Assembly: GCA_034520965.1 (NCBI GenBank) | Contig: JAXHMY010000009.1 | Coordinates: 64,001 to 128,000, forward strand | Direction of reading: 5' to 3' | Length of the DNA stretch: 64,000 nucleotides | Source: Spirochaetia bacterium | GTDB taxonomy: Bacteria > Spirochaetota > Spirochaetia > DSM-16054 > Sediminispirochaetaceae | Part shown: in pieces, positions 1,345 through 19,980 of the stretch | Position numbering within the stretch: the stretch's first letter is position 1 | How the letters are laid out: each line of letters opens with the position of its first letter | Notes under the pieces: model-generated | The model's input: the letters and a program-made list of their open reading frames with translations, nothing else | Told to the model about the DNA's origin: nothing | Databases searched by the model: none | Made by a program: the position numbers and the translations under genes

Positions 1345-1792
1345 AGCCGGCCTCCAGATATTTTTTGATAGCCCTCAGCTGCCCCTCGTAGCCGCTGCAG
1401 CGGCAGAGGTTGCCCGCAAGGTAATGTTTTATCTCTTCTTCACTCGGTGCGTTGAGCTCTTTTTTCATCGCCAGCACGGTCAGAGCAAAACCGGGGGCAC
1501 AGAAACCGCACTGATCGGCCCCTTCGTTGACCAGGTATTCGGAAAACTCTTCGACCTCTTCCCGAAGCCCTTTGATGGTGGTGACCTTCCTGCCGTCGGC
1601 CATCGCGGCCAGGAAGGAGCAGGACAGGATAGGTGACTCGTCCAGCAGCACCGAACACACTCCGCAGCTGCCGGTGTCGCAGCCTTTTTTTACCTCGGTG
1701 TAGCCGGCCGCCCGGAGGCTGTCAGCCAGTATCTCCCCGGGTTTAATATCTAATGATTTTTCTTCGCTGTTTATTTCTAGTGTGATTTTCAT
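1337..1792 (-). CDS. (2Fe-2S)-binding subunit, Mo-hydroxylase (CoxS/XdhC type)
   Basis: GCDTGSCGVC, QCGFC and NLCRC motifs. Confidence 0.95.
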   Translation of the reverse strand: MKITLEINSEEKSLDIKPGEILADSLRAAGYTEVKKGCDTGSCGVCSVLLDESPILSCSFLAAMADGRKVTTIKGLREEVEEFSEYLVNEGADQCGFCAPGFALTVLAMKKELNAPSEEEIKHYLAGNLCRCSGYEGQLRAIKKYLEAGYA

Positions 1793-2577: not shown

Positions 2578-2656
2578 GACTCTTCCTCCCCGTTTCAGTG
2601 TATCACTAATTTTATCACATAGTTTTTCAATATGCAAATATGTTCATACAAGAATG

Positions 2657-2685
2657 TTGACAAATATTCGGAGAAACACTACAAT
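2657..2685 (+). promoter_or_regulatory. Sigma70-type promoter for the rightward Mo-hydroxylase operon
   Basis: TTGACA-17bp-TACAAT. Confidence 0.7.
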
Positions 2686-2720
2686 TTTATGAAAGGGTAA
2701 AAATGGCCGAAGGAGGCTGT

Positions 2721-4862
2721 ATGACAAATGAAATAAGTACTCCAGTTGAAAGGGTCGATGCGCGGGCCAAGACCGACGGTACTGCGCGTTATCTTGCCGA
2801 CATGACTTTTGAGGGGATGCTCTACGCCAAAGCGGTGAGATCCGAGCGCGCCCGGGCAAAAATCATCAATGTGGAAGTTCCCAGGCTTCCGAAGGGATAC
2901 TATTATATTGATGCCTCCGACATACCCTCGGAAGGGAAAAATAAAATTGAAATAATCAAGGACGACTGGCCGGTATTTGCCGACAGGGAAGTGCGTTTCA
3001 TCGGTGACACCATCGCCCTTATCGTCGGACCCGACCGGGGGGAGTTAAACCGCCTCTGCCGGGAGGTGAAGGTGGAGTACGAAGATCTGTCTCCGGCACT
3101 CACCCTGGACGAGGCGGAAGAGTTGAAGGGCGGCCCGATTCACGGGCATGATAACGCTTTTGCCGACTATCACCTGAAGAAGGGGGAGCCCGAGGAAGCA
3201 TTCAAAAGGGCGGACCGTATAATTGAGGATGTGGTGAGTACCGGTTACCAGGAGCACATCTATATGGAGCCCCAGGCAGTCGTTGTCCAGCCGCAGAAGG
3301 GGGGAAAGCTGAATGTATATTTTTCGGGACAGTGCCCATTTTATGTCCGGCACGCGGTGGCTGCAACACTGGGCGTAGAGGAAGGTGAAGTCCGGGTACA
3401 ACAGGCGGTTACCGGCGGTGCTTTCGGCGGAAAGGAACACTACCCCGATGTTGTCTCTACCAGTCTGGCCGTGGCGGCACATAAAACAGGCCGTCCGGTG
3501 GGCTACTTTTTCGACCGTGTGGAGGACATTAGTTATACCGTGAAACGGCATCCGAGTCGAACCAGTTTTCGCACTGCCCTCGATGAACGGGGTAATGTCT
3601 TGGCTATGGATATAGATCTTAAACTCAACGCCGGGGCCTACGAGAGCTGCTCCATGGTAGTTCTGCAGCGTTCAATTTTTTCGGTAAACAGTGTCTATGA
3701 TATACCCAACGTGAAGGTCCGCGGCCGGGCTTTTGCTACCAACAATGTGCCCTCCGACGCCTTTCGGGGATTCGGCGCTCCCCAGGGGCTCTATGCCATG
3801 GAGGTGCATATGAGTCATCTGGCCCGGGCGTTGGGGCTCTCCGAATTGGATTTTAAGCGGCGCTATTTGCTAAAAAAGGGCGGGGTGACGATTTCCAACG
3901 GCCATGTTCATGAAGAGGTAAAGCTGCCGGAGATGATAGAGCGGATAGATCGGATGTCCGGGTATCGTCGCAAAATCGAGGAGTTCAAGCCCGGTGGGTG
4001 GCGGGGCATCGGTTTTTCCATGGTAAACCACGGCAGCGGCTTCACCGGCAGTGGTGAGCAGGATATTATCCGCGCGGTGGTAAAAATAAAAAAACGGGCC
4101 GACGGTTATGTGGAGCTTTTCGCTTCAAACGTCGAGATGGGGCAGGGGCCGCTCACCACTTTCCCTAAAATCGCCGCCGCGGTGCTCGGTATACCGGTAG
4201 ATAAAGTTATCTACAACAATCCCGACACCGACTTGGTCCCCGATTCCGGGCCCACTGTCGCCTCCCGCACTATCGCCATAGTCGGCTATTTGGTCCAAGA
4301 GGCGGCCAAGAAATTAAAAGCTCGCTGGAACGAGTCCGGAGAGCCTGTAGTGGAGCAGCACTACGCCCCTCCCTCGTATCTGCGATGGGATCAGGAAAAG
4401 CTCGAAGGCGACGCCTATCCCTCCTACGGATGGGGCATCAAAGTGATCGAGGTAGAGGTCGATCCTCTTACCTACGAGGTGGAGACCAAGGGAATTTGGG
4501 CGGTTCACGATGTGGGGGTGGCTATTGATGAACAGGTGGTGGAAGGACAGGTCGACGGCGGTATTATTCAAGGCCTCGGGTGGGGAAGCTTGGAGAAATT
4601 AGAGGTGAAGGATGGTCGTTTTCTGCAAAGGACCATGGCCGATTACACCATCCCCACCAGTATGGATTTTCCCAAAATAGAGAGCGCCCTGGTGGACAAT
4701 CCCTATGAATATGGCCCTTTTGGAGCAAAGGGGGCCGGCGAGCTGGTTTTTGAGGGCGCCGCGGAGGCCTTTACCTCGGCAGTGCAAATGGCAATAGACC
4801 GGGATATGCAGCGTATACCTGTTACCCCGGAATATATAATGGAGGTATACGAAAATGGCTGA
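2721..4862 (+). CDS. Xanthine dehydrogenase family molybdopterin-binding subunit
   Basis: QEHIYMEP, GGAFGGKE, AFRGFGAPQ, TVASR and GAKGAGE motifs; AGGAGG RBS. Confidence 0.95.
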   Translation: MTNEISTPVERVDARAKTDGTARYLADMTFEGMLYAKAVRSERARAKIINVEVPRLPKGYYYIDASDIPSEGKNKIEIIKDDWPVFADREVRFIGDTIALIVGPDRGELNRLCREVKVEYEDLSPALTLDEAEELKGGPIHGHDNAFADYHLKKGEPEEAFKRADRIIEDVVSTGYQEHIYMEPQAVVVQPQKGGKLNVYFSGQCPFYVRHAVAATLGVEEGEVRVQQAVTGGAFGGKEHYPDVVSTSLAVAAHKTGRPVGYFFDRVEDISYTVKRHPSRTSFRTALDERGNVLAMDIDLKLNAGAYESCSMVVLQRSIFSVNSVYDIPNVKVRGRAFATNNVPSDAFRGFGAPQGLYAMEVHMSHLARALGLSELDFKRRYLLKKGGVTISNGHVHEEVKLPEMIERIDRMSGYRRKIEEFKPGGWRGIGFSMVNHGSGFTGSGEQDIIRAVVKIKKRADGYVELFASNVEMGQGPLTTFPKIAAAVLGIPVDKVIYNNPDTDLVPDSGPTVASRTIAIVGYLVQEAAKKLKARWNESGEPVVEQHYAPPSYLRWDQEKLEGDAYPSYGWGIKVIEVEVDPLTYEVETKGIWAVHDVGVAIDEQVVEGQVDGGIIQGLGWGSLEKLEVKDGRFLQRTMADYTIPTSMDFPKIESALVDNPYEYGPFGAKGAGELVFEGAAEAFTSAVQMAIDRDMQRIPVTPEYIMEVYENG

Positions 4863-5328
4863 AATAACTTTTTCCGTCAATGGAAAAAGCAGAACGATAG
4901 ACACAAACCCCCTGCGAAGACTTCTCGATGTGTTGCGGGAGGACCTCGGGCTGACCGGGGTGAAGGAGGGATGTGCTGAAGGGGAGTGTGGGGCCTGTTC
5001 TGTTCTCAAAGACGGGCTTTTGGTAAACACCTGCATGGTTCCCATCGGTATCTGTGAAGGATCGGAGATATTAACCCCCGAGGGGCTGCGCGAAACTGAT
5101 CGGGGAAAGGCCATCATCGACGCTTATGCCGAAACGGGTGCGGTGCAGTGCGGTTTCTGCACCCCCGGTATGATGATGGCGAGCGAGGCTCTGTTGGATA
5201 AGAATCCTCAGCCTACGGAAGCAGAAGTGCGTGAAGCCTTGTCGGGTAACCTGTGTCGCTGCACAGGCTACGACATGATAATCGAAGGGGTGCTCAAGGC
5301 GGCGGAAGGGGGGAAGGGACTATGGTAG
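4855..5328 (+). CDS. (2Fe-2S)-binding subunit, Mo-hydroxylase
   Basis: GCAEGECGAC, QCGFC and NLCRC motifs. Confidence 0.95.
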   Translation: MAEITFSVNGKSRTIDTNPLRRLLDVLREDLGLTGVKEGCAEGECGACSVLKDGLLVNTCMVPIGICEGSEILTPEGLRETDRGKAIIDAYAETGAVQCGFCTPGMMMASEALLDKNPQPTEAEVREALSGNLCRCTGYDMIIEGVLKAAEGGKGLW

Positions 5329-6170
5329 ATGCATATCGACCGCAGAGCCTTGAAGAAGCTTTACTGCTTCGAAGTGAAACAGGAGCTATTCCCTTCGCCG
5401 GGGGTACCGATTTGATGGTGAAGTACAGGTATGAATCCGGTGCGGTTCCCGAGTACCCCGGGCCGATTCTCTTTCTGCCGCAGCTGAAAGAGCTGCGCGG
5501 CATACGGGTGAGTGAGGAGGAGATACGCATAGGTGCGGGCAGCACCTTGTCGGAAATCCTCCACTCTCCGCAGGTACCGGAACTCTTAAAAGAAGCGGTA
5601 CGGACTATAGCGGCTCCGGGACTGCGAAACACAGCCACCTTGGGAGGGAATATATGTAACGCCTCCCCGGCGGCAGACGGGGTCTGTGCATTGTACGCTC
5701 TGAACGCGCGGGCCAGGGTTGCCTCGGCCGGTTCTGAGCGGGAATTGCCGCTTTACGATTTTATAACCGGGCCCGGCAAAACCATCCTGGGAGAGGATGA
5801 GTTACTTGTCGCGATTATCCTTCCCATGGAACAATTGTCGCTGCATCTTTTTCGAAAAGTAGGAACGAGAAGGGCGAACGCCCTGGCAAAACTCAATATC
5901 GCCGCAACTGCCAAACTGCGCGGAGATCGTGTGGATGAAGTACGGATCGCCCTGGGCGCGGTTGCTCCGGTAGTGCTCCGTTCTCTGGAGTTGGAAAAAC
6001 AGATGGCGGGTCTGACCAAAACTGAGCTGTCGAAAAAACTTGAGTACTTTGTTGAGGGCTACGAGGCGATGATTCGGCCTATTGATGACCAGCGATCGAC
6101 CGCTGAGTACCGTGGAAAAGTTTCGGTTAAGCTTCTGCGTCAGTTTTTATCCAGCCTGATCGATGCATAG
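5322..6170 (+). CDS. FAD-binding subunit, Mo-hydroxylase
   Basis: AGGTDL, RNTATLGGNICNASPAAD and PIDDQRSTAEYR motifs. Confidence 0.93.
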   Translation: MVDAYRPQSLEEALLLRSETGAIPFAGGTDLMVKYRYESGAVPEYPGPILFLPQLKELRGIRVSEEEIRIGAGSTLSEILHSPQVPELLKEAVRTIAAPGLRNTATLGGNICNASPAADGVCALYALNARARVASAGSERELPLYDFITGPGKTILGEDELLVAIILPMEQLSLHLFRKVGTRRANALAKLNIAATAKLRGDRVDEVRIALGAVAPVVLRSLELEKQMAGLTKTELSKKLEYFVEGYEAMIRPIDDQRSTAEYRGKVSVKLLRQFLSSLIDA

Positions 6171-6195: not shown

Positions 6196-6237
6196 TGGAG
6201 TTAGACGCAAGCGATGAATACATCAAACATCAATATA
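6196..6237. repeat. 42-bp direct repeat, copy 1 (copy 2 at 13378-13419)
   Basis: TGGAGTTAGACGCAAGCGATGAATACATCAAACATCAATATA is identical at both positions. Confidence 0.95.
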
Positions 6238-6250
6238 GCAGGTTATTGCA

Positions 6251-6829
6251 ATGAATGAGGAAAAAACTGAGTGTTGTGATTTAAGTATGATAGTTTCAAC
6301 CTTTTATCATCAATTAAAAAGATATCTAATAGGAAAAATCGGAGATATTCATTTGGCCGAAGATATAGTGCAGGAAGTTATGCTGAAAGTAGTTTCCGCC
6401 CATCGAAAGAGTATATACGTAAAAAATGTAAAGGCCTGGGTGTACCAGATTGCACGCAATACTTTGATAGATCATTACAGGAGAAAAAAGAATACAATAG
6501 AAAACTGCGAAGAATACATTGATGAAATACTGTCTACGCAAAAAGAGGACAATTTCAGCCTAGATGAATACTTGATTCCGATGATAAATTTGCTTCCTGA
6601 AAAATACAGTATGCCTTTATTACTTTTTGATATAAAAAACAAATCACAGAATGAAATTGCCCAAATAATTGATATTTCCCTTTCGGCAACCAAAATGAGG
6701 ATTCAAAGAGCCAGAAAAATGCTATATGGTTTGTTTGTTGAATGTTGTGATATCCAATATACCGAAAACGGATCTTTCTTACATTGTGAAGTAAAAGAAA
6801 CATGTATCCCATTAAGAAATTTGGAATAA
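6251..6829 (+). CDS. sigZ: ECF RNA polymerase sigma factor, SigZ-like
   Basis: AEDIVQEV, WVYQIARNTLIDHYR, KMRIQRAR and the C-terminal ECC typical of SigZ; low GC. Confidence 0.8.
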   Translation: MNEEKTECCDLSMIVSTFYHQLKRYLIGKIGDIHLAEDIVQEVMLKVVSAHRKSIYVKNVKAWVYQIARNTLIDHYRRKKNTIENCEEYIDEILSTQKEDNFSLDEYLIPMINLLPEKYSMPLLLFDIKNKSQNEIAQIIDISLSATKMRIQRARKMLYGLFVECCDIQYTENGSFLHCEVKETCIPLRNLE

Positions 6830-6909: not shown

Positions 6910-7806
6910 ATGAACACATTGATTGATACGCTTCAGTATTTTGTCGTAATTACCCTTGAGTTAATAGTCTTGTTTATTGGGATAACCGCAATTGTTGAAT
7001 TTATTCTAATGCATATATCGGAAGAAAAAATGAAAAAACTTCTTTCCGGTAAAGGTTTATGGGGCAATATCATTGGATCCGGACTTGGAAGCGTGACTCC
7101 ATTTTGTGCTTGTTCAACCATACCTATGACAGTTGGATTTCTAAATGCGAAAGTGCCTTTTGGTGCTACAATGTCATTTTTAATAGCTTCACCATTGGTG
7201 AACCCCATTATTATTGGGATGCTGGCGTTTTTCGTTGGTGTCAAAGCGGCAGCCATCTATTTTTTACTTGCTTTTATTCTATCGGTATTTTTTGGCTTCA
7301 TTCTTGAAAAAACTGGATTCAAAAAATATATAAAGAATGTTCGAGTTAAGGGCGACACAAAAATAAACGAACAAACTCCAAAGCAGTTATCATTTAAGTC
7401 AAAAATAAGAATATCATTATTTGCAGGTTGGTCAACATTAAAGCCGGTTCTAATATTTCTACTAATAGGCGTTGCCATAGGCGCAGTGATTTATGGGTAT
7501 ATGCCTGATGATTTTGTATTAAGAATTGCCGGTCCTGGTAATATTTTTGCCGTTCCTGTTGCCGCACTCGTTGGTGTACCGCTTTATATTAGAGCTGAAA
7601 CAGCAATTCCCATAGCGCTTTCTCTTGTAGAGAAAGGAATGGGTATAGGTACTGCCATCGCTTTAATAATAGGCGGTGCAGGTATGGCAATACCCGAGAT
7701 GAGTATGTTGGCAGGTATTTTTAAAATTAAACTTGTAGCTGCAATAGTTACTGTTATTTTTCTTACAGCCGTTATAAGCGGTTTTGTTTTCAATATTATT
7801 TTATAA
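6910..7806 (+). CDS. Permease, ArsP/DUF318 family
   Basis: Multiple TM helices; TPFCACSTIP, FLIASPLVNP and GVPLY motifs. Confidence 0.85.
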   Translation: MNTLIDTLQYFVVITLELIVLFIGITAIVEFILMHISEEKMKKLLSGKGLWGNIIGSGLGSVTPFCACSTIPMTVGFLNAKVPFGATMSFLIASPLVNPIIIGMLAFFVGVKAAAIYFLLAFILSVFFGFILEKTGFKKYIKNVRVKGDTKINEQTPKQLSFKSKIRISLFAGWSTLKPVLIFLLIGVAIGAVIYGYMPDDFVLRIAGPGNIFAVPVAALVGVPLYIRAETAIPIALSLVEKGMGIGTAIALIIGGAGMAIPEMSMLAGIFKIKLVAAIVTVIFLTAVISGFVFNIIL

Positions 7807-7824: not shown

Positions 7825-8013
7825 ATGACAGATAAAGATAAAAAGGGCTTATTCACCAGATTGTTTTCTGAAAGACCAAAGAAAGGAGGTTGTTGTAATA
7901 TCCAGTTTGAAGAGATTTCTGATGAAAATTACATATCAGAAAATCAAAAGAATAAGAACTCTGCGAAGATAGAAGATAAAGCAGACATTACAAACAAAAA
8001 AAAAGAGCAATGA
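7825..8013 (+). CDS. Small Cys-Cys (GGCC) hypothetical protein
   Basis: Strong AGGAGG RBS; KKGGCCNIQFEE. Confidence 0.6.
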   Translation: MTDKDKKGLFTRLFSERPKKGGCCNIQFEEISDENYISENQKNKNSAKIEDKADITNKKKEQ

Positions 8014-8347: not shown

Positions 8348-8401
8348 TTGACTAATATGATCAAGCTTATTACTATATGTACATGCAAACATGCGCATGT
8401 A
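8348..8401 (+). promoter_or_regulatory. Sigma70 promoter plus palindromic ArsR-type operator of the ars operon
   Basis: TTGACT-17bp-TACTAT (8348-8376) followed by TACATGC-N8-GCATGTA (8380-8401). Confidence 0.7.
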
Positions 8402-8426
8402 TACATACATCTGATATGTCGGGAGA

Positions 8427-8743
8427 ATGAACCAACCATATGCTTTCAACAGCTGATACCCGACTGCGAATTGTACGGCTGCTCCTTGCAGTCGATAGTT
8501 CGGTATGTGTTTGCGAACTGGTTGATGCCCTGGGGCTATCACGGATTAGCGGGCACAGACTCGTTATTGTCTGCGCTCTGGACATTTCTGCGTACCGCGC
8601 CGATGGATACGAAAGAAGAGAAACAGCTCCGGCGAGATCAGAAGGCTTTGGAACTTCGATTGCAGCTGCGCAAGAACGGAATATGTGTTCTAGGACGGCA
8701 CTCTAGGCACCTTCAGAAGTCTGAAGGAAAGAGTAAAACCTGA
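8427..8743 (+). pseudogene. arsR: ArsR/SmtB repressor remnant with internal deletion and frameshift
   Basis: TRLRIVRLL...VCVCELVDALGL, then the recognition helix is missing; a C-terminal-like segment (LRLQLRKNGICVLG) continues in another frame. Confidence 0.7.
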
Positions 8744-8765
8744 CAAGTAAGAAGGAGAGAGTAAT

Positions 8766-9125
8766 ATGAGTAGTGACAAAATTGTTGATTCAAAGGTGGG
8801 AGTCGAAATCTTCGATCCGCCGATGTGTTGTCCTGGAGGTCTTTGCGGACCAGCAATCGATCCGGCACTTCTGGATGTAAACGAAGCGGTGCTCCGGCTC
8901 AAGAAAGAGCATGGAATTGCCGTACAACGGTATCTGCTTCAGCAGCAGGGGCAGAAGTTCATGGAAAACCCGGAGGTTCTCGCGCTCCTCAAGGAGCACG
9001 GAACGGACATTCTGCCGTTGACTGTGGTCAATGGAATAGTTGTAAAGAAACAGGGTTTCCCTACCTACGAGGAGCTGCTCGCCTGGAGCGAAAGCGGCAA
9101 TTCGGCAGGGGTGGAACAGCAATAA
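8766..9125 (+). CDS. arsD: Arsenite metallochaperone ArsD
   Basis: IFDPPMCCPGGLCGP, LPLTVVNG and FPTYEEL motifs. Confidence 0.93.
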   Translation: MSSDKIVDSKVGVEIFDPPMCCPGGLCGPAIDPALLDVNEAVLRLKKEHGIAVQRYLLQQQGQKFMENPEVLALLKEHGTDILPLTVVNGIVVKKQGFPTYEELLAWSESGNSAGVEQQ

Positions 9126-9139
9126 CAGGAGTAGTTAAC

Positions 9140-11011
9140 ATGAGTTCATCACAGACACAGTATCTATTTTTCTCCGGCAAGGGGGGTGTTGGCAAAACGA
9201 CGATGGCCTGCGCCACCGCAGTTGAGAATGCCGAAGCGGGAAAGCGCACCCTCATCGTCACAACCGATCCGGCGTCAAACCTTTCAGACGTTTTTGAGAC
9301 CGAAATCGGCCATACTGTCAGGCCTTTGGGAGAGAGCCACGGAATAACCGGACTCTACGGTATGGAAATTGACCCGGATCTGGCTACAGAGGAGTACCGG
9401 GAGCGGATTCTCGCACCTATGAGGGCGGTAATGCCGGAGAGCGTGATCAAGGTAATGGAGGAGCAGTTTAACTCGCCATGCACCACGGAGATAGCCTCTT
9501 TCGACCGTTTCGTGGACTTCATGTCCGAAGGCGCCGACTGGGATGTGGTTATTTTTGATACGGCCCCAACAGGCCATACCCTTCGACTCCTGGAGCTTCC
9601 GGTAGACTGGAGCACGCACATCGAAGAGAGTGCCAAGGGGACCGGTAACACCTGCATAGGTCCGGTTGCCTCGATTCAGGAAAACAAGGTCAAATATGAT
9701 GAGGCAACCCGGCTCCTGGCCGATCCGGAACGAACGGAGTTTACCTTCGTGCTCCTGCCCGAGGAGACTTCCATTTACGAGACAAAGCGGTCATCAGCAG
9801 AGCTTGCGGAGATCGGCATAAAAAACACACGTCTTATTGTCAATGGTATTCTTCCGGAAGATGTTTGCGATCATCCGTTCTTTCGCAGTCGCTACGATAT
9901 GCAGCAGAGACACCTGATTCAAATTGGAGAAGAGTTCTCTTCTCCATTGAAGTACATGTACCAGCGAGACGGCGAAATAAAGGGCGTTGTGGGGCTTAAA
10001 CATATAGCTCGGGACCTCTTTGCCGGAAAAAACCACCACCCACAGTATTCACTCGGTTCCCCCGAAATCGGAGGAGAGGCGGAGTATGAGGTGCAGGACT
10101 CCCGCTCTCTCATGGATACGATTCGCCCGAGCACCGAAAAAACCAAGGCGATATTCTTTACCGGTAAGGGCGGCGTCGGCAAGACGGCAGTCTCCTGTGC
10201 TACCGCATTCGCCCTTGGGCGGGCCGGTTTCAAAACCCTCCTGCTGACCACCGATCCAGCCTCACATATCGGCCAGGTCCTGGAGCAGCCGGTGGGCGAT
10301 ACGATTACCGCTGTTAAGGATGCTCAGAATCTCGACGCAGTCATGATTGATCAGGAACAGGCGGTAATAGAGTACAAGGAGCGAATTCTTGAGGATGCAA
10401 AGAAGAAATACTCGGAAGATATGCTCCTGGCGGTTCGAGAGGAACTCGAATCTCCCTGTACCGAGGAGATGGCAGCCTTTGACAAGTTTATGTGGTACGT
10501 AGAAAAAGAGGAGTACGACATAGTTGTATTCGACACAGCTCCCACGGGGCATACATTACGGCTCCTTGAGCTCCCCTTCGACTACGCCGACCAGGTAGGA
10601 ATGATGGTCACCACCACCGGAGAAGGGAATACGGCTAAGAGCGAGACCCAGGCCCGGTTTGACCGAATTATTAAGCAAATGAAAGATCCCGAGCGCAGTG
10701 CCTTCGGTTTTGTTGTCTACCCGGAGTCGACACCCGTGGTTGAGGCGTACCGGGCTATGGAAGATCTGCGGGCAGCGGGAATCGACACACAATTTGTGGT
10801 AGCAAACCAGGTGCTTGAAGAGGAGTATTGCAGCAACGACTTCTTCCGCAAGCGGCGTGCGATGCAGGAGAAGTACCTGGGTGAAATCAATCGTCTGTTT
10901 AAGCTGCCGGTGACAATCATGCCGCTTTTTGAGACTGAGATCACCGGACTGGAGATGGTGGAACGGGGAGCCGATGCGCTTTTTGCCAACACAGCCGTAT
11001 CCTGCACTTAG
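9140..11011 (+). CDS. arsA: Arsenite-activated ATPase ArsA (two NBDs)
   Basis: Two GKGGVGKT and two DTAPTGH motifs; metal-site Cys in SPCTTEI, TCIGP and SPCTEEM. Confidence 0.95.
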   Translation: MSSSQTQYLFFSGKGGVGKTTMACATAVENAEAGKRTLIVTTDPASNLSDVFETEIGHTVRPLGESHGITGLYGMEIDPDLATEEYRERILAPMRAVMPESVIKVMEEQFNSPCTTEIASFDRFVDFMSEGADWDVVIFDTAPTGHTLRLLELPVDWSTHIEESAKGTGNTCIGPVASIQENKVKYDEATRLLADPERTEFTFVLLPEETSIYETKRSSAELAEIGIKNTRLIVNGILPEDVCDHPFFRSRYDMQQRHLIQIGEEFSSPLKYMYQRDGEIKGVVGLKHIARDLFAGKNHHPQYSLGSPEIGGEAEYEVQDSRSLMDTIRPSTEKTKAIFFTGKGGVGKTAVSCATAFALGRAGFKTLLLTTDPASHIGQVLEQPVGDTITAVKDAQNLDAVMIDQEQAVIEYKERILEDAKKKYSEDMLLAVREELESPCTEEMAAFDKFMWYVEKEEYDIVVFDTAPTGHTLRLLELPFDYADQVGMMVTTTGEGNTAKSETQARFDRIIKQMKDPERSAFGFVVYPESTPVVEAYRAMEDLRAAGIDTQFVVANQVLEEEYCSNDFFRKRRAMQEKYLGEINRLFKLPVTIMPLFETEITGLEMVERGADALFANTAVSCT

Positions 11012-11060
11012 AAGGGCCCGGATCGTGAAAATAATACATTTTATATGAGGAGAAGAAACT

Positions 11061-11297
11061 ATGTCGAATCTTGACGCACGAGAGAAAGAGTTAGTAGCTA
11101 TTGGTGCCGCCTATGCCGGCAACTGCATCCCATGCATGGAGTATCATATACCTGCAGCCCGAAAGGCCGGGTTGACGGATGAACAGATTCAGGAAGCTAT
11201 CGAGCTTGCTGAAAAAGTGAAGCAGGTTCCGGCTAAGAAGGTGCTCGATACAGCAAAGTTGCTTATCGCGGGAGTCGGCGGCGGCATTAAAGTATAA
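11061..11297 (+). CDS. Carboxymuconolactone decarboxylase (AhpD-like) family protein
   Basis: REKELVAIGA...NCIPCMEYH...ARKAG.T.EQI.EA pattern. Confidence 0.85.
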   Translation: MSNLDAREKELVAIGAAYAGNCIPCMEYHIPAARKAGLTDEQIQEAIELAEKVKQVPAKKVLDTAKLLIAGVGGGIKV

Positions 11298-11337
11298 TGC
11301 TGCCGTCACGAAGAATTCATAGAAACAGGAGGATTAA

Positions 11338-11724
11338 ATGGCTGAACAGACAAAAAATATAGATACACTTATCGCTGCGGCTCAGGAGTTTGCAGAAGGA
11401 GTCGCCCAAACAGCGGAATACCACGAGTTTCAAACCGCTGTCGATGCGTATCACAAAGACGAAGAGGCTCTGGAGCTCTTGCAAAAGTTCCAAACGGCTC
11501 AAGAGCAAGCACAAAAGTTTGAGCCCTGGGGAGGAGTTTCAACTGGAGGCGAAGAAGATCTGGAGACGCTTCAGGCGAAAGTGTTGGCACAACCGATGCT
11601 TGCCCGATACTTCAGCTCTCAAGAGACGCTTCTTCAGGCGCTCCAGGAGACAAACATCTATATGGCCGACAAGTTGGGGTTTGATTTTGCCGGGCTCACC
11701 AAACCAGCCGGTGGCTGTTGTTAA
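11338..11724 (+). CDS. YlbF/YmcA-like helical protein ending in Cys-Cys
   Basis: AQEFAE...EYHEFQTA...D.EALELL..FQ pattern; C-terminus GGCC*. Confidence 0.75.
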   Translation: MAEQTKNIDTLIAAAQEFAEGVAQTAEYHEFQTAVDAYHKDEEALELLQKFQTAQEQAQKFEPWGGVSTGGEEDLETLQAKVLAQPMLARYFSSQETLLQALQETNIYMADKLGFDFAGLTKPAGGCC

Positions 11725-11748
11725 AGCTTCGAATAAAGAGGATGCAGT

Positions 11749-12120
11749 ATGATTAGTAGAGAACTACAGAACACAGCGGACACCTTGGTGACCGCATTAG
11801 AAAAAAACGAGAGCATTTCAGCTTATCAGGCGGCAAAACGTCGCTCTGAGGAAAACGAGGAGCTCAAGCAGCTTCGGGCGACCTATTCCGAACTACTGCC
11901 CGAGCTCCAGCAAAAGCAAGCGGACGGGACCCTCACGCAGGAGGACATTGGAAGCTTACGCTCCCTCCAGGAACAAATCAATCAACACCCGGCCTCCGTC
12001 GAATTACTTCGCACCCTGCAGGAGGCAACTCCGATACTGAAAGAGTGCAACAGTACGATAAGCCGGATCCTGGGATTCGACTTCTCTGCACACGCAGCAC
12101 CGCCTTCCGGGTGTTGTTAA
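11749..12120 (+). CDS. YlbF/YmcA-like helical protein ending in Cys-Cys
   Basis: Helical YlbF-like pattern; C-terminus LGFDFSAHAAPPSGCC* parallels LGFDFAGLTKPAGGCC* of the preceding gene. Confidence 0.72.
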   Translation: MISRELQNTADTLVTALEKNESISAYQAAKRRSEENEELKQLRATYSELLPELQQKQADGTLTQEDIGSLRSLQEQINQHPASVELLRTLQEATPILKECNSTISRILGFDFSAHAAPPSGCC

Positions 12121-12139
12121 CCACCGGTTTGGACGATAC

Positions 12140-13386
12140 GTGTCTATGCCTGCAATAAAGCAGAATACCCGGGTGCGCAGATACGCGCGCCTTCTTGTAA
12201 AGGTGGCAGTGAACATTCAGCCGGGGCAGCGATTCACCATATGGAAGGCCCCGGTCGACGCTGCTCCCTTTGTGCGGATGCTTACCGAAGAAGCATATAT
12301 TGCCGGAGCCTCGTATGTAGATGTTTTCTGGCGGGACGATCACCTGGAATTGATCCGCCTCATGCGCACAGCTCCTTCGGTCTACACCGATCGCCCTGAT
12401 TGGGAAGTGACTGTTATGGAAAACTCGGCGAGACAGGGGGTGCATTTCTCTTTTTTGACTGCACCTGTGCGGGGGTCTTTGACAATACCCCAACGGCAAT
12501 GGTAGCCCGAGCGCTGGCATTGGAGAGCGAACATCTTCAACGGGTCTGGCAGTTTTTTGTGCGCAATACGGTCAACTGGTCAATTGCCACGGTTCCGACT
12601 CCAAGCTGGGCACACAAGGTGTTCCCGGAGCTCCCGGTCGAAGAGGGAATACAGGAGCTCTGGGAGACCATTTTTGTCACTTGTCGTATAGATACGGAGA
12701 ATTACGTTGAACGATGGGAGCGACACCGAAGCACCCTGGAGGATCGTAGTCGATTGCTCAATGATTTACGCCTTAGAGCACTCCACTTTGAAGGTCCCGG
12801 GACAGAGTTGAGAGTGGGGCTTCCCCGCGGTCACGTATGGCGCAATCCCGGTTTCGTGACGCAAGACGGAATACCCTTCATCGCGGATATCCCAATAGAA
12901 GAGGTGTTTACCCTGCCGCATCGAAATGAGGTGGAAGGCCATGTTCGTTCGACCAGGCCTTTTGTGGTGAACGGACGAACCGTCGATGATTTCACCCTGC
13001 GGTTTCAGAGAGGAAGGATCACCAGTATCGAGGGGTGCAGGCAGGATCAGGAGATGCTTCGCACGCTTATAAACAACAATGAAGGTGCGGATCGGCTCGG
13101 CGAGGTGGCTCTGGTTCCCGTAGACTCACTGGTGGCTAATCGCGACCGCCCCTATTACAACACCCTGTTCGATGAAAACTCCTCCTCTCACCTCGCCTTT
13201 GGTCGTGCGTACCGTTTCTGTCTCGATGGCGGCGAGGAGCTGTCAGAGGAGAAATTCCTCGCCGCCGGGGGCAATGTTAGCTCCGTTCATGTGGATTTCA
13301 TGGTTGGTTCGACGGAGGTACATGTTTTTGGTGAGACATGGGATGGGCTGCGGATACCGATTATGCAAAATGGAGTGTGGAGTTAG
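12140..13386 (+). pseudogene. M29 (AmpS/PepS) aminopeptidase, frameshifted near 12450
   Basis: N-terminal RRYARLLVKVAVNIQPGQ in one frame; PIEEVFT, LGEVALV, LFDEN...HLAFG and VHVDFM in another; T-run near the switch (possible sequencing error). Confidence 0.85.
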
Positions 13387-13439
13387 ACGCAAGCGATGAA
13401 TACATCAAACATCAATATATAAAGAATGTTCGAGTTAAG
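13378..13439. repeat. Chimeric repeat: copy of 6196-6237 fused to copy of 7325-7350
   Basis: 13378-13419 equals 6196-6237; 13414-13439 equals 7325-7350; they overlap at AATATA. Confidence 0.9.
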
Positions 13440-14176: not shown

Positions 14177-15994
14177 ATGAATCCAACTACGGTTAAAGAT
14201 ATGCTAACCGTTGTCGAGAGTTGCATGGGTGATGCACCCCCGTATTGTCATACGGCATGCCCAATGCATACCGACGTAAAAGGTTACGTCAACCTGATCG
14301 CGGATGGTAAACACAAAGAAGCGATTCAGACAATCCGGGAAAAGCTGTTTCTTCCCAAAACCCTTGGACGGGTTTGCGCCCATCCCTGCGAGGAGCAGTG
14401 TAAACGAAACGAGGTGGGTAATGCGATGTCGATTGCGGCGCTCAAACGCTTTGTCGCAGACAACTACGACGATGAGAATGATTGGGACCTCACCTGCGAA
14501 GCGGAGCGACCAGAAAAAATTGCGGTTATTGGAGCAGGACCTGCCGGAGCGCAGGCAGCTCTCGATTTGCGTCGCAACGGATACCAGGTAACGATTTACG
14601 AGAAACATCCGGTTGTGGGCGGTATGTTGTATGTTGGAATACCTTCATACCGGCTGCCGCGGGAAATTATCAATGCTGAATACAGTCTCCTGAACCGTCT
14701 TGGTGTTCGCTTTGAGCTGTCAACTGAAGTTGGCAAGGACATTCCCTTTGATGATCTTGTAGAACAGTATGATGGCGTGGTTATAGCGATTGGTGCACAC
14801 AAGGGATTCAAGCTCCCCGTAAAGGGTGCGGAACTGCCTGGTGCGGTGCAGGCGGTCGATTTTCTGCGTGAGGTGAGTCTGACGGGAAAGTACGAAGGCT
14901 TCGGTAAACGTGTTACCATTATTGGCGGTGGTAACGTTGCCCTTGACTCTGCTCGTACGGCGATACGTCTTGGTGCCGAGAAAGTCCACCTGGTTTGTCT
15001 TGAGCGTGATATCAAGGAAATGTTCGCCCACGACTGGGAAGTTGAGGAAGCCGTTGAAGAAGGCGTCATTCTGCACAACTCCTGGGGTACCGATACGATT
15101 GAGGGTAACGGAAAGGTCGAACGAATCAACCTGAAGAAGTGTATCCAGGTATTCGACCCGAAAGGCCGCTTCAACCCCGCTTATGACGAACAGAACAAGG
15201 ATACGATCGAGACGGACATGGTGATCTTTGCAATCGGCCAGGGTGTGGACAGCGAATTTGCAACGTCGGTGGAAGTTGGTCGGGGCGGTCGCTTTGTCGT
15301 CGACGCGAAAACACTCCAGACCACCAATCGTAAAGTATTTGCCTGCGGCGACGGCACCGGCATCTCGCTTATGGCTGTCGAGGCGATGTCGGAGGGAAGG
15401 ATTGCGGCAGAATCGCTGCATCGGTACCTGAACGGTCGGGATATGCGTTCCAACCGGGATCACGAAAGAGCGTACCGCACCAGCCTTGAGACGACGATTC
15501 CGGCAGATGACACAAATCCTGTTCGGGTCGAGACCCGGAAGATGGATATCGCGACGCGCAAACAAACGTTTAGCGAGGTGGACCTCGGTTTCTCTGAAGA
15601 AGAGGCTCTTAACGAGGCTTCCCGATGTCTTAAATGCGAGTGCCGTCTCTGTGTCAAAGAGTGCCTCATGCTTCAGGAGTATTCGCCGGACAGTCCCAAG
15701 ACCTATTTCAAGGAGGTACTGATCAACGGCAAACTGGATGCTATCACCCCCTTCTCCTGTAATATGTGCGGTACCTGCACACTGGTCTGTCCGAGGGATT
15801 TTAGACTTCAGGAAATTTTCATGAATATGCGGAAAGAACTGGTTGCGGCCAATCACGGCAAGTCGCCGATGAAGGGTCACAAAGCGATCGAAATGCATCA
15901 GCTGTTGGGCTTCTCCCGCATCTTCAATACAACACAAGCGGCCAAAACTTCTGGTAGCAACGGCAAGGAAAAGTCCGCAGGAGGTAGCAAATGA
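14177..15994 (+). CDS. FAD/NAD(P)-dependent Fe-S oxidoreductase (GltD/NfnB-like) with C-terminal 4Fe-4S dicluster
   Basis: CHTACP, GRVCAHPCE, GAGPAG, GGGNVALD, EASRCLKCECRLCVKEC and CNMCGTCTLVCP; AGGAGG RBS. Confidence 0.9.
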   Translation: MNPTTVKDMLTVVESCMGDAPPYCHTACPMHTDVKGYVNLIADGKHKEAIQTIREKLFLPKTLGRVCAHPCEEQCKRNEVGNAMSIAALKRFVADNYDDENDWDLTCEAERPEKIAVIGAGPAGAQAALDLRRNGYQVTIYEKHPVVGGMLYVGIPSYRLPREIINAEYSLLNRLGVRFELSTEVGKDIPFDDLVEQYDGVVIAIGAHKGFKLPVKGAELPGAVQAVDFLREVSLTGKYEGFGKRVTIIGGGNVALDSARTAIRLGAEKVHLVCLERDIKEMFAHDWEVEEAVEEGVILHNSWGTDTIEGNGKVERINLKKCIQVFDPKGRFNPAYDEQNKDTIETDMVIFAIGQGVDSEFATSVEVGRGGRFVVDAKTLQTTNRKVFACGDGTGISLMAVEAMSEGRIAAESLHRYLNGRDMRSNRDHERAYRTSLETTIPADDTNPVRVETRKMDIATRKQTFSEVDLGFSEEEALNEASRCLKCECRLCVKECLMLQEYSPDSPKTYFKEVLINGKLDAITPFSCNMCGTCTLVCPRDFRLQEIFMNMRKELVAANHGKSPMKGHKAIEMHQLLGFSRIFNTTQAAKTSGSNGKEKSAGGSK

Positions 15995-16758
15995 CACCGA
16001 CAAAACGTATCTTTTTCCCAGGATGCAGCCTTCCTTCGTATAACCCGGAGGCGGTTGAAAAAATGATGGAACACCTGAAGGAGCGCCTTCCTGGAACAGG
16101 AGCGATTCTCAAGTGCTGCGGTAAGCCCACCAAGGCCCTTGGCCAGGTGGATAAATTCAAGAAGCGGTACGCCGGTGTACAGAAAGAGTTTGACCGGCTC
16201 GGGGCCGAAGAGATTATCGTCGCCTGCCAGTCCTGTTTTCTGACCCTTTCGGAGTACAGCCCGAAGCAAAAAATACGCTCGCTCTGGACGTTGCTGCCGG
16301 AAATCGGACTGCCCGAGGCCTCCCGCGGTATCGGCAAGGATAGCGACATCACCTTTGCGATTCATGATTCCTGTTCAACCCGGTACCGGTCGGATATCCA
16401 CGAAGGTGTTCGCTGGATCATGGACGAACTCGGATATAAGTATGAGGAACCGCCACATACCAAGGGGTCGACCCTCTGCTGCGGTTTTGGCGGAATGATT
16501 CTGCCGGCCAACCCGGAGCTTGCGCAGCGGATCATGGAGAACCGCACCTCCGAGGTGGAGTCTGAGTACATGGTCACGTACTGTGCGGCGTGCCGCGGGT
16601 CGATGATGATGGGTGGCAAAACTGCTCTTCATATACTTGACCTAATATTCGGCGGTCCCTGGAACTCGAAGTCTACATTTCCCGGTTCCGGCACCACGAT
16701 TGAATCGTGGAAGAACCGGCGGAAGGCAAAAAAGGGACTTGAAACCGTGCTTTCTTAA
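15991..16758 (+). CDS. CCG-domain Fe-S protein (HdrB/GlpC-like)
   Basis: FFPGC, KCCG, ACQSC, HDSC, LCCGFGG and YCAAC; ATGA overlap with the upstream gene. Confidence 0.88.
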   Translation: MTPTKRIFFPGCSLPSYNPEAVEKMMEHLKERLPGTGAILKCCGKPTKALGQVDKFKKRYAGVQKEFDRLGAEEIIVACQSCFLTLSEYSPKQKIRSLWTLLPEIGLPEASRGIGKDSDITFAIHDSCSTRYRSDIHEGVRWIMDELGYKYEEPPHTKGSTLCCGFGGMILPANPELAQRIMENRTSEVESEYMVTYCAACRGSMMMGGKTALHILDLIFGGPWNSKSTFPGSGTTIESWKNRRKAKKGLETVLS

Positions 16759-16767
16759 GGTTTTACC

Positions 16768-16810
16768 CACCCGGATCTGGCTGCTTAAGGCCCCTCCGGG
16801 TGTATTTTTT
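16768..16810 (+). terminator. Terminator-like hairpin (second copy ~18200-18242)
   Basis: CACCCGGA...TCCGGGTG stem followed by a T-run. Confidence 0.5.
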
Positions 16811-16859
16811 ATCCTGCGTTTTTTCGCAGGAAAGATTTATCATTACAGGAGTTTGAACA

Positions 16860-17969
16860 ATGAAAAGGATTCTCTTTTTCGGACTGGTTCTCCTGGCAGT
16901 TATTTCGGCAACTTCCCTCTTTGGGGTGGATATTGAGCCGAAATACCAGGAGTACGCTCGCTCTGAGATCTTGATCAGCCCGGAACGGGCGCAGTACCTG
17001 ATGCAGAACGAGGATAATATAGTCGTTGTGGATGTGCGTGATGAGGGAGACTACGAGGCGGGACATCTTCCCGGTGCAGTCAATACATTTCGTAAAGATT
17101 ACGGCGCCCGCGGCGGCGAGTACAACTTAATGTGTATGCGAGTGGATTCTGCAAAGATTCACGAGCTTCTTGGCACCCTTGGAATCGACGGTAACAGCCG
17201 CATCATTGTCTATTCGGCTGGTTCCGGCTTCGATTCGTTTCGTTTCGCGTGGCTCGTCACTATGTACGGACACGACCGGGAGAAGGTGCATATCATCGAC
17301 GGTTTCTTTCCTGCCTGGAAAGCTGCAGGACTGCCTACTACCACCGATAAACCTTCAGTAAGCCCGGTACGCTACCAGCCCCCGGGCACGGTGGACGAGT
17401 CACGGCTTGCACTCATTGAGGATGTGGACCGGGCGCTCAAAGACCCGAATGTGATTATCCTTGATACCCGGACCCCTGCAGAGTGGTGGGGTATTGCGCA
17501 GTACGAGGGTGCGTCCCGCAAGGGCCACATTCCCGGAGCAATCCACATCAACTATGCCGAGAACTTTACCGATGAAGGCATCAAGTCCGCTGCAGAACTG
17601 CGGGCCCTCTATGAGGCGGCCGGCGTCACTCCCGACAAGGAGATTATCGCCTACTGTCAGTCCGGCATACGTTCTTCTCTGACAACCACCATTCTTGCCG
17701 ATGTACTTGGTTATCCCAACGTCAAAAACTACGACGGCTCGTGGGTAGAGTGGAGCTATGATCGCGATCGCCCTGTCACCGCGTATTTTCTTTACATTGT
17801 ATCAGCAGTATTTATCCTTGGTATAGTTGTTATCGGAGCGGCATACATTGTGAAGAGACGAAAAGGCAAGAGCAGCAAACTCCTGAAAATCGATCTGCTT
17901 GTTCTTATTATCTATGCGATTTTTCTGATGTGGTATTTTAACCTCTTCAGCTTAATCAGCGGATCATGA
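16860..17969 (+). CDS. Exported tandem-rhodanese sulfurtransferase, truncated duplicate lacking the DedA domain
   Basis: Near-identical to the N-terminal 366 aa of 18292-19980; ends at the duplication junction. Confidence 0.8.
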   Translation: MKRILFFGLVLLAVISATSLFGVDIEPKYQEYARSEILISPERAQYLMQNEDNIVVVDVRDEGDYEAGHLPGAVNTFRKDYGARGGEYNLMCMRVDSAKIHELLGTLGIDGNSRIIVYSAGSGFDSFRFAWLVTMYGHDREKVHIIDGFFPAWKAAGLPTTTDKPSVSPVRYQPPGTVDESRLALIEDVDRALKDPNVIILDTRTPAEWWGIAQYEGASRKGHIPGAIHINYAENFTDEGIKSAAELRALYEAAGVTPDKEIIAYCQSGIRSSLTTTILADVLGYPNVKNYDGSWVEWSYDRDRPVTAYFLYIVSAVFILGIVVIGAAYIVKRRKGKSSKLLKIDLLVLIIYAIFLMWYFNLFSLISGS

Positions 17970-18190
17970 AGAACCGTACCTCTGAGGTGGAGTCTGAGCA
18001 CATGGTCACTTACTGTGTGGCGTGCCGCGGGTCGATTATGATGGGCGGCAAAACTGCTCTTCATATACTTGACCTTATATTTGGCGGTCCCTGGAATTCG
18101 CAGTCTACATTTCCCGGTTCCGGCACCACGATTGAATCGTGGAAGAACCGGCGGAAGGCAAAAAAGGGACTTGAATCCGTGCTTGCTTAA
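17966..18190 (+). pseudogene. Duplicated 3' fragment of the CCG protein gene
   Basis: Near-identical to the last 74 aa of 15991-16758. Confidence 0.85.
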
Positions 18191-18291
18191 GGCTTTACCT
18201 ACCCGGATCTGGCTGCTTTGGGCCCCTCCGGGTGTATTTTTTATCCTGCGTTTTTTCGCAGGAAAGATTTATCATTACAGGAGTTTGAACA

Positions 18292-19980
18292 ATGAAAAGG
18301 ATTCTCTTTTTCGGACTGGTTCTCTTGGCAGTTATTTCGGCAACTTCCTTGTTTGGGGTGGATATTGAGCCGAAATACCAGGAGTACGCTCGCTCTGAGA
18401 TCTTGATCAGCCCGGAACGGGCGCAGTACCTGATGCAGAACGAGGATAATATAGTCGTTGTGGATGTGCGTGAAGAGGGAGACTACGAGGCGGGACATCT
18501 TCCCGGTGCAGTCAATACATTTCGTAAAGATTACGGCGCCCGCGGCGGCGAGTACAACTTAATGTGTATGCGAGTGGATTCTGCAAAGATTCACGAGCTT
18601 CTTGGCACCCTCGGAATCGACGGTAACAGTCGCATCATTGTCTATTCGGCTGGTTCCGGCTTCGATTCGTTTCGTTTCGCGTGGCTTGTCACCATGTACG
18701 GACACGACCGGGAGAAGGTGCATATCATCGACGGTTTCTTTCCTGCCTGGAAAGCTGCAGGACTGCCTACTACCACCGATAAACCTTCAGTAAGCCCGGT
18801 ACGCTACCAGCCCCCGGGCACGGTGGACGAGTCACGGCTTGCACTCATTGAGGATGTGGACCGGGCGCTCAAAGACCCGAACGTGATAATTCTCGACACC
18901 CGGACCCCTGCAGAGTGGTGGGGTATTGCGCAGTACGAGGGTGCGTCCCGCAAGGGCCACATTCCCGGAGCAATCCACATCAACTATGCCGAGAACTTTA
19001 CCGATGAAGGCATCAAGTCCGCTGCAGAACTGCGGGCCCTCTATGAGGCGGCCGGCGTCACTCCCGACAAGGAGATTATCGCCTACTGTCAGTCCGGCAT
19101 ACGTTCTTCTCTGACAACCACCATTCTTGCCGATGTACTTGGTTATCCCAACGTCAAAAACTACGACGGCTCGTGGGTAGAGTGGAGCTATGATCGCGAT
19201 CGCCCTGTCACCGCGTATTTTCTTTACATTGTATCAGCAGTATTTATCCTTGGTATAGTTGTTATCGGAGCGGCATACATTGTGAAGAGACGAAAAGGCA
19301 AGAGCAGCAAACTCCTGAAAATCGATCTGCTTGTTCTTATTATCTATGCGATTTTTCTGATGTGGTATTTTAACCTCTTCAGCTTGATCAGTATGGACCG
19401 TATCAATGAACTTCAGATGTGGATTGAGAGTTTCGGTTTGTTAGGCCCGGTCGTTTTTATGCTGCTCTTTATTGCGGCGTGTGTTTTCTTCCTACCCGGA
19501 GGTCCGTTTGGCATCATCGCGGGCATCATTTTCGGTCCCATTTTCGGGACAATCTGGGCTATTTTGGGAGCGACAATCGGTGCATCACTGGCTTTCCTTC
19601 TGGGACGATATGCGTTACGAGGTTTTGCGGAAAACCTGGTTGCCAAGAATCCCAAGCTCAAGAAGATAGACGACGGTGTAGAAAAAAACGGGTGGCGCAT
19701 GCTTATGATTACCCGCTTTATACCGATTTTTCCGTTTAATGTACAGAATTATGTATACGGGCTGACCAAGATCAAGTTTGTAACCTATGCCGGCCTCTCC
19801 TTCCTGTTTATGCTGCCGGGTACAATGGCGTACGTCTTTATAGCCGGCGCAGCCGTTTCCGGAGCGAATATGTCAACAATCCTGATCTACTTCGCTATCG
19901 GTGCCATCATCCTGGTTGGCCTGTCCCTGCTTCCTAAATTACTGAAAAAGAAGAGTAATGTTGAAGACATAATCGAGTAA
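18292..19980 (+). CDS. Rhodanese sulfurtransferase (YnjE-like) fused to a TVP38/DedA membrane domain
   Basis: Signal peptide; GHLPGA, GHIPGA, active-site YCQSGIRS and YDGSWVEW; C-terminal RFIPIFPFNVQNY TVP38 motif. Confidence 0.9.
   Translation: MKRILFFGLVLLAVISATSLFGVDIEPKYQEYARSEILISPERAQYLMQNEDNIVVVDVREEGDYEAGHLPGAVNTFRKDYGARGGEYNLMCMRVDSAKIHELLGTLGIDGNSRIIVYSAGSGFDSFRFAWLVTMYGHDREKVHIIDGFFPAWKAAGLPTTTDKPSVSPVRYQPPGTVDESRLALIEDVDRALKDPNVIILDTRTPAEWWGIAQYEGASRKGHIPGAIHINYAENFTDEGIKSAAELRALYEAAGVTPDKEIIAYCQSGIRSSLTTTILADVLGYPNVKNYDGSWVEWSYDRDRPVTAYFLYIVSAVFILGIVVIGAAYIVKRRKGKSSKLLKIDLLVLIIYAIFLMWYFNLFSLISMDRINELQMWIESFGLLGPVVFMLLFIAACVFFLPGGPFGIIAGIIFGPIFGTIWAILGATIGASLAFLLGRYALRGFAENLVAKNPKLKKIDDGVEKNGWRMLMITRFIPIFPFNVQNYVYGLTKIKFVTYAGLSFLFMLPGTMAYVFIAGAAVSGANMSTILIYFAIGAIILVGLSLLPKLLKKKSNVEDIIE

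Follow-up and report, generated by a model that had tools for sequence, protein, structure and literature searches.

The closest described relative of the locus reported here is the haloarchaeal arsD-arsA-hcsL-hcsS cluster (NF041417, NF041416 and NF041415; e.g., on pNRC100), in which YlbF-derived proteins ending in Cys-Cys are encoded behind the ArsA ATPase, and in which the presence of Acr3 and ArsM varies. PMC3600143 reports that arsenite resistance in Halobacterium NRC-1 requires arsADRC and not arsB, and that an unknown transporter was proposed; hcsL and hcsS are the two genes directly behind NRC-1 arsA on pNRC100. The present locus lies in a 64,000-nucleotide stretch of contig C9 of a Spirochaetia bacterium (G000:C9:64001-128000, hereafter “the window”; coordinates count from its start unless a contig or locus is named), where arsD and a two-domain arsA are followed by a gene for a CMD protein and by cc1 and cc2, genes for two small YlbF-fold proteins with cysteine tails. 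Two copies of this arsD-arsA accessory module are present in an arsenic island that further encodes Acr3 and an ArsP-family permease, and the copy reported here is the more complete one. We give about an even chance to the reading that cc1 and cc2 form a heterodimeric thiol buffer, the tails of which would bind As(III)/Sb(III) and feed ArsD, ArsA and ordinary efflux.

With the haloarchaeal form the window shares gene order, the ArsA clade and an ArsD without a Cys-Cys tail; it differs in its bacterial host, in that ArsA, cc1 and cc2 all fall below the haloarchaeal model cutoffs, in that the second small protein is a full 123-aa YlbF domain rather than the ≈60 aa of HcsS, in having Cys564 besides Cys243 in ArsA, and in the CMD, zinc-ribbon, ArsD-like thioredoxin and M29 genes, which vary between loci. 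RicA:RicF (YmcA:YlbF) of Bacillus subtilis (PDB 6PRK) has the same fold, two paralogues and cysteines in C-terminal tails; unlike it, the window locus has no RicT gene, an arsenic context, adjacent tandem genes, natural fusions among its relatives, and an identity to RicA:RicF of 18–20%. Canonical arsRDABC and arsRDA-acr3 operons (R773 type, TIGR04291) share the ArsD site, the ArsA ligands, the two-domain build and, presumably, the coupling to an exporter, whereas their ArsA belongs to a separate clade (≈34–37% identity), their ArsD often has a Cys-Cys tail of its own, ArsC is present, and they have no YlbF pair.

NCBIfam already has names for the haloarchaeal form; what is new here is the link between HcsS and cc2, the fusions, the tail-less ArsD and the contexts free of ArsA. 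Full-text searches, which leave most subscription papers uncovered, found neither HcsL/HcsS nor YlbF proteins of ars operons treated in any paper. Interest in the locus is limited by that existing name and by the failure, for this genome, of an earlier claim that it has no pump. The transporter question in NRC-1 becomes approachable through small proteins and, if our reading is true, the YlbF fold would gain a role outside RNA processing.

The Cys-tailed YlbF pair

The genes listed in a first-pass annotation of the window (arsD, a two-domain arsA with its metal-site cysteines, a CMD protein with CxxC, two CC-tailed proteins and an M29 peptidase) are all in place, as judged by reading of the open reading frames (ORFs) and a family profile search of the window (Table 1). 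The C-terminus of cc1 reads LGFDFAGLTKPAGGCC and that of cc2 LGFDFSAHAAPPSGCC, each directly followed by the stop codon. Both proteins pass the gathering cutoff of Com_YlbF (PF06133, 23.9 bits) with 52.1 and 56.1 bits, respectively. HcsL (NF041416) is the best match of both, at 62.5 bits for cc1 and 34.4 bits for cc2 against a cutoff of 140, while HcsS (NF041415, cutoff 55, ≈60 aa) gives cc2 14.5 bits at a length of 123 aa, outside what defines that family. The placement among YlbF proteins suggested by the first-pass annotation is thus confirmed by profile, and the HcsL and HcsS cutoffs are not reached.

The cc1 protein has the HcsL pattern of a YlbF-like body, a terminal Cys-Cys and first place in a pair behind arsA, and its only plasmid matches are four haloarchaeal hcsL genes. 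Profile–profile comparison (hhalign) gives 99.2% (cc1) and 96.7% (cc2) to HcsL, and 89.3% for cc2, over the last 35 columns only, and 35.4% for cc1 to HcsS. Because HcsS retains the last helix of the domain and the tail, cc2 is its full-length counterpart. On these sequence comparisons, cc1 and cc2 are the bacterial counterparts of haloarchaeal HcsL/HcsS, and the kinship with “halo-CC-star” proteins to which the annotation had pointed is borne out by the plasmid matches and the profiles.

A Cys-Cys end is found in 4 of the 5564 stop-to-stop frames of at least 80 aa in the genome, three of them being cc1, cc2 and a second cc2 described below; the second cc1 escaped this count because it has a GTG start. 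The CC tails beside arsA are not a product of chance. The YlbF content of the genome consists of four Cys-tailed copies and one marginal match only.

In a tree of YlbF domains with the tails removed (55 rows from 23 loci plus window, haloarchaeal and outgroup rows; many forks unresolved), cc1 and cc2 each cluster separately (support 83 and 89), and Cys-free YlbF proteins lie outside both groups; HcsL is unplaced, and pairs encoded away from arsA form no clade of their own in it. A profile search returned 289 representatives at E 1e-10 or better. Among the best 150 of the 289 together with two earlier matches, 104/152 end in CC and 40/152 in a single or split Cys, counts that are biased by the presence of the tail in the profile, and 11 of the best 150 are two-domain fusions. 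The pair is a widespread and conserved bacterial and archaeal module with predicted soluble, full-length members and natural fusions. In two further proteins (P0068 and P0095) a Cys-tailed YlbF domain stands behind a region that we take to resemble the C-terminal domain of class II ribonucleotide reductase.

One fusion, modelled from a 13-row alignment, gives one compact unit (pLDDT 88.8, pTM 0.79), a model that the likeness to the solved RicAF structure may have aided; the single-sequence fold of fusion P0012 was poor (pTM 0.36). One domain of a fusion aligns to RicA (6PRK_A) with a TM of 0.74 by target and a root-mean-square deviation of 2.7, at a non-significant E of 0.22. Two Foldseek runs gave no match at E ≤0.001 and an Atlas structure search with cc1 no TM >0.42, while a word-index homologue search with cc1 returned 2 proteins only and a cluster look-up generic YlbF names only. 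Because the natural fusions fold as one compact unit in the model, cc1 and cc2 likely form a RicAF-like heterodimer, in agreement with the first-pass annotation.

The tails of the two partners are not equivalent. C127 and C128 of cc1 are kept in at least 90% of 57 rows, and C122 of cc2 is invariant in 41. Among distinct sequences, 41/48 of cc1 and 11/43 of cc2 end in CC, with a single Cys ending 26/43 of cc2, so that the notion of two CC tails does not carry over to most cc2 proteins. The conserved minimum is two cysteines on cc1 and one on cc2, three thiols in all. Three thiols are what As(III) prefers.

ArsA and ArsD

Alignment to 1F48 brings C114/C172/C440, H146/H471 and S438 of the window ArsA onto the metal site of E. 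coli ArsA (C113/C172/C422, H148/H453 and S420), for which the consulted parts of PMC2440759 give the canonical residue list and those of PMC12415280 three conserved cysteines. It has the two nucleotide-binding domains with GKGGVGKT and DTAPTGH that the functional class demands. The protein is below the canonical TIGR04291 cutoff (494.8 bits vs. 650), and its best family is ArsA_halo (NF041417) at 677.7 bits, below the cutoff of 800. In a quick tree of 51 rows, which carries long-branch warnings, its nearest neighbours are haloarchaeal ArsA together with a single Nitrospirota protein (SH-aLRT 95), and this haloarchaeal-like group and a sister spirochaete clade stand apart from seven canonical ArsA (support 100). 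The closest relatives of the window ArsA by sequence are in Spirochaetota genomes.

Extra cysteines at 243 and 564 are invariant among 63 close ArsA relatives; haloarchaeal ArsA has Cys243 alone, and neither residue occurs in the sister clade or in canonical ArsA. A reading of the two as the zinc CxxC of Get3 is weakened, since, although located in the same loop, they are shifted by one or two positions and each stands alone. The second ArsA half (10142–11008) resembles the archaeal Get3-type ATPases 3ZQ6 and 3UG6 around the CxxC loop, without the long insert. A separate single-domain ArsA/Get3-like gene lies in two frames at G000:C1:143494-146445, beside a cstA-like gene (cstA label by eye).

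The window ArsD has the N-terminal CCxxxxC site (MCCPGGLC) and qualifies under NF033727. A C-terminal CC is missing in 14/14 ArsD proteins (the window, 10 loci of the same clade and three haloarchaeal loci) and is present in 3/4 canonical plasmid ArsD. Because ArsD of this clade is without the Cys-Cys tail found on most of the canonical ArsD examined, the YlbF pair may supply that tail in trans. Loci of the sister ArsA clade (L031–L035) have an IscA/HesB-like protein ending in CC and a CMD protein in place of the YlbF pair, with a Cys-tailed zinc ribbon in 4/5.

Occurrence of the pair beside ArsA

Nineteen genome-derived loci of this ArsA, six of them under 6 kb, contain cc1 in 8 cases, cc2 in 7, an acr3-like gene in 8, arsP in 7, arsM in 1, a CMD gene in 1, a zinc ribbon in 11, an ArsD-like thioredoxin in 14 and M29 in 4. 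Among 32 metagenome loci, many of which appear redundant, cc2 is found in 30, arsA in 20, Acr3 or ArsB in 8, CMD in 7 and a zinc ribbon in 19; the ten that span at least 8 kb have arsA in 9 and a pump in 5. All six haloarchaeal plasmid loci read arsD-arsA-hcsL-hcsS, with ACR3 in 2 and arsM in 3. The pair is thus seen beside arsD-arsA in genome-derived, metagenome and haloarchaeal loci, the conservation that the first-pass annotation had called for; its further statement that haloarchaeal clusters have no pump holds in part, as ACR3 is next door in 2/6 of the loci.

Among 99 genomes of one spirochaete order, this ArsA occurs in 15 (counted only at E 1e-199 or better; five weak matches were dropped, as was a further one in G407), the pair, whole or partial, occurs in 27, and 13 genomes have both; the pair is therefore present in 13/15 genomes with this ArsA vs. 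14/84 without. A further 400 genomes sampled across the phylum yielded the Cys-tailed pair once, in G210, and in a Nitrospirota-centred sample it was met in 1/201. Co-occurrence with ArsP at the genome level was rejected as evidence, as the 14/15 genomes with this ArsA that have ArsP compare with an order-wide background of 72/99.

CMD is a variable accessory gene, patchy in relatives. The second copy of the module has lost it, it accompanies 1/19 genome-derived and 7/32 metagenome loci, and it also occurs in five related ArsA loci that have no pair, all of which goes against its assignment as the dedicated thiol reductant of the pair.

Exporter genes and a second copy of the module

The first-pass annotation described an operon with no pump. 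An acr3 gene is found at C9:57301-58353 (TIGR00832, 386 bits, cutoff 283), 5.6 kb left of the window start, 14.8 kb from arsA and 2.5 kb from the second cc1; the impression of a missing pump arose because the window edge cuts it off. An ArsP-family permease is encoded inside the window, upstream of arsR. An exporter gene elsewhere in the genome was the finding that the annotation itself had named as decisive against pump independence, and for this genome that claim falls. Searches of the genome, at a completeness of 85.9%, gave no ArsB, LMW-type ArsC or ArsM.

The second copy of the module, decayed and likewise overlooked at first, lies at C9:59600-61643 (L005:13601-15644, the stretch read as L005 being C9:46000-65999). 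One strand of L005 carries usp, acr3, arsR, an NADH oxidase-like gene, DUF169 and a thioredoxin-ferredoxin gene, and the opposite strand an intact arsR, remnants of arsD and arsA, a gene for an ArsD/YuzD-like thioredoxin fold, cc1 and cc2. Identity to the window is 96% across cc1-cc2. The CMD gene is deleted, its first codons being fused onto cc1, and this junction is found in contigs of sequencing runs X1 and X2. Both YlbF frames are kept despite the loss of ArsD, ArsA and CMD; with 8 amino-acid changes vs. 10 silent ones in cc2 between the copies, this retention is weak evidence for selection. The intact arsR of the second copy could serve as regulator of the window copy, the arsR of which is broken. 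Molybdenum hydroxylase (xanthine dehydrogenase-like) clusters lie between the two ars copies (window 1–6170 and L005:17015-19345; labels by eye).

A proposed thiol buffer and its alternatives

In the mechanism that we propose, the two YlbF-fold proteins would pair as a heterodimer, the Cys tails of which would bind As(III)/Sb(III); the dimer would buffer the metalloid and hand it over to ArsD and ArsA, and these in turn would pass it on to ordinary membrane efflux. In genomes without this ArsA, the pair would buffer thiophilic metals on its own. Consistent with the latter, ArsA-free pairs adjoin CsoR/CopZ, a P1B ATPase, ArsR and ArsP, ArsR and Usp, or ZupT-like genes, the pair standing before arsR-usp, after arsP-arsR and before the ZupT-like gene.

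Several points weigh against a buffer that serves ArsA and efflux. Over half of the pair-bearing genomes (14/27) are without this ArsA, which is therefore not an obligate partner; the Fisher test on the overlap (p 2e-7) overstates the association, as kin are not independent in any of the genome counts; and the metagenome scan is biased to this subtype because the tail motif served as search pattern. G210, a single contig that is 99% complete, has neither ArsA nor ArsD, its pair occupying the same position as in G665, which has Acr3. Some ArsA-free pairs lie among genes unrelated to metals, and in five genomes the pair lies directly behind the gene for the Fe-S carrier ATPase Mrp/ApbC. Among the 15 genomes with this ArsA, drafts of which the completeness is not stated, Acr3 is above cutoff in 4, weaker or fragmentary in 3 and not found in 8, and none of the 12 genomes tested for ArsB gave a match. 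Pump independence or coupling to ArsP is possible in these Acr3-negative draft relatives. In the consulted part of PMC2963123, moreover, the ArsA and Acr3 trees are mismatched. Finally, the two tails of RicAF exit opposite faces and a third partner is needed for the cluster, as far as the consulted part of PMC6751060 goes, so that a three-thiol site would need fold-back or a partner.

In an alternative that we regard as unlikely, the pair would work like RicA:RicF: its tails and a third protein would jointly ligate a metal cluster, Fe-S or other, and the pair would be a client of a P-loop ATPase (ArsA here, Mrp/ApbC elsewhere), the role being repair or redox control under arsenic stress and not the holding of arsenite. 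Fold and sequence tie the pair to RicA and RicF, of which the tail cysteines ligate a [4Fe-4S] cluster with RicT (PMC6751060, as consulted). The pair follows Mrp/ApbC in G412, G675, G676, G677 and G678, five cases that share flanking genes and probably go back to one event. The genome does have a PSP1/RicT-like gene (G000:C1:393047-393301), but on another contig, and such genes occur in 6/14 control genomes. The IscA/HesB-like CC protein that replaces the pair in the sister ArsA clade speaks for this alternative; against it, ars loci also encode zinc-ribbon, HesB, Rdx and ArsD proteins with a terminal CC, which points to a shared metalloid-binding tag. A gene for a Rex repressor is found near the Mrp/ApbC-pair loci (L107, L168, L169, L170 and L171).

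We hold it to be highly improbable that the pair merely travels with the ars genes while doing unrelated housekeeping work, e.g., in RNA processing, and that the arsenic link is historical: pairs do occur beside pyruvate dehydrogenase-like, malic enzyme-like (both labels by eye) or glutamate synthase-like genes, but the order arsA-cc1-cc2 is constant from spirochaetes to haloarchaea and the Cys-free YlbF proteins are a branch of their own.

The model of the first-pass annotation, in which ArsA, driven by ATP, loads As(III) onto the soluble dimer or recycles it, as an end point or for hand-off to ArsM and with no need for a pump, seems to us improbable. It accords with the genomes in which neither Acr3 nor ArsB was found, with locus L016 (arsD-arsA-pair-M29-arsM, no pump within 21.9 kb), with the order arsA-hcsL-hcsS-arsR-arsM on pNRC100 together with the reported lack of a role for arsB in NRC-1 (PMC3600143, as consulted), and with the invariant Cys243 and Cys564 of this ArsA clade. 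The window genome, on the other hand, has Acr3 and ArsP and no ArsM was found in it; Acr3 or ArsB lies in the gene run of the pair in 8/32 metagenome and 2/6 haloarchaeal loci; 7/8 of the Acr3-negative drafts have a full or near-full ArsP match; and a stoichiometric sink would have a small capacity.

The literature contains proposals that ArsA couples with Acr3 or with ArsP and, for Acr3, cites one heterologous experiment (PMC2963123; PMC6205960). We think it improbable that this ArsA energises the ArsP-family permease with the pair as adaptor or buffer, possibly for methylated arsenicals. The arsP gene lies upstream in the window and occurs in 7/19 related loci; in L174 it immediately precedes arsD-arsA. 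One contig of run X3 puts the start of the sigZ-arsP block right behind M29, and ArsA–ArsP coupling was proposed from tree matching (PMC2963123, as consulted). On the other side, the genome-level count (14/15) is hardly informative given its background; the arsP block of the window has a G+C content much below that of the arsD-arsA module, and its permease differs in type from the long ArsP that relatives have; and ArsP of C. jejuni did not export inorganic arsenite according to PMC6205960.

A broader reading is distinctly unlikely in our view, namely that the Cys-tailed YlbF dimer is the missing output of a distinct bacterial and haloarchaeal ArsA clade, on which ArsA, at the expense of ATP, loads As(III) either to be stored or to be passed to ArsM, Acr3 or ArsP; on this view ArsA of NRC-1 could work without ArsB, and the same dimer would be a metal-cluster client of Mrp/ApbC elsewhere.

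Locus map and sequence quality

Table 1. Features of the window around the arsD-arsA module (positions in the window).
Feature	Position	Strand	Evidence or remark
42-bp direct repeat, left copy	6196..6237	+	100% identical to 13378-13419; contains the final M29 bases and the spacer behind
SigZ-like extracytoplasmic function (ECF) sigma factor, 32% G+C	6251..6829	+	best family NF007215, below cutoff
ArsP-family permease, ≈300 aa type, candidate exporter	6910..7806	+	PF03773 178 bits, cutoff 32.3
62-aa ORF, internal GGCC motif	7825..8013	+	no family above cutoff
arsR pseudogene	8427..8743	+	≈25 codons of the DNA-binding region gone, plus a frameshift
arsD, metallochaperone	8766..9125	+	NF033727 106.7 bits, cutoff 90
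arsA, two-domain ATPase, 623 aa	9140..11011	+	NF041417 678 bits; TIGR04291 495 bits
CMD/AhpD-like protein with CxxC (CIPC)	11061..11297	+	PF02627 and TIGR00778 above cutoff
cc1, YlbF fold, ends KPAGGCC and stop	11338..11724	+	PF06133; NF041416 62.5 bits, cutoff 140; hhalign 99.2% to HcsL
cc2, YlbF-fold paralogue, ends PPSGCC and stop	11749..12120	+	PF06133; hhalign 89.3% to HcsS
M29 aminopeptidase, two frames here	12140..13386	+	PF02073 in each frame
42-bp direct repeat, right copy, then a 26-bp arsP-internal piece	13378..13419	+	

Two defects of reading frame in the window had escaped the first-pass annotation. The arsR fragments align with residues 14–43 and 67–121 of the intact ArsR, in two frames, and the broken sequence, deletion and frameshift included, recurs without gaps in contigs of runs X1 and X2, which derive from one sample, possibly the one from which the assembly was made. 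The frame split of M29 is likely an assembly slip, because contigs of runs X1 and X3 have one extra base near 12434 and hence no frameshift there. A scan for promoters and terminators stayed at chance level (11 seen vs. 9.9 expected).

The 42-bp repeat with the M29 end brackets a 7.2-kb sigZ-arsP-ars block, from the left copy to the 13378–13439 region, and the 26-bp piece of arsP, with its counterpart at 7325–7350, sits behind the right copy. In one contig of run X3 the M29 end is joined directly to the start of the sigZ block. The repeats and this contig suggest a tandem duplication or another gene order, with deletions later. Another tandem duplication is seen farther along the window (15991–19980), where two near-identical rhodanese-like genes (labels by eye) lie at 16860–17969 and 18292–19980; the second has an added membrane domain, and the end of the upstream gene is repeated.

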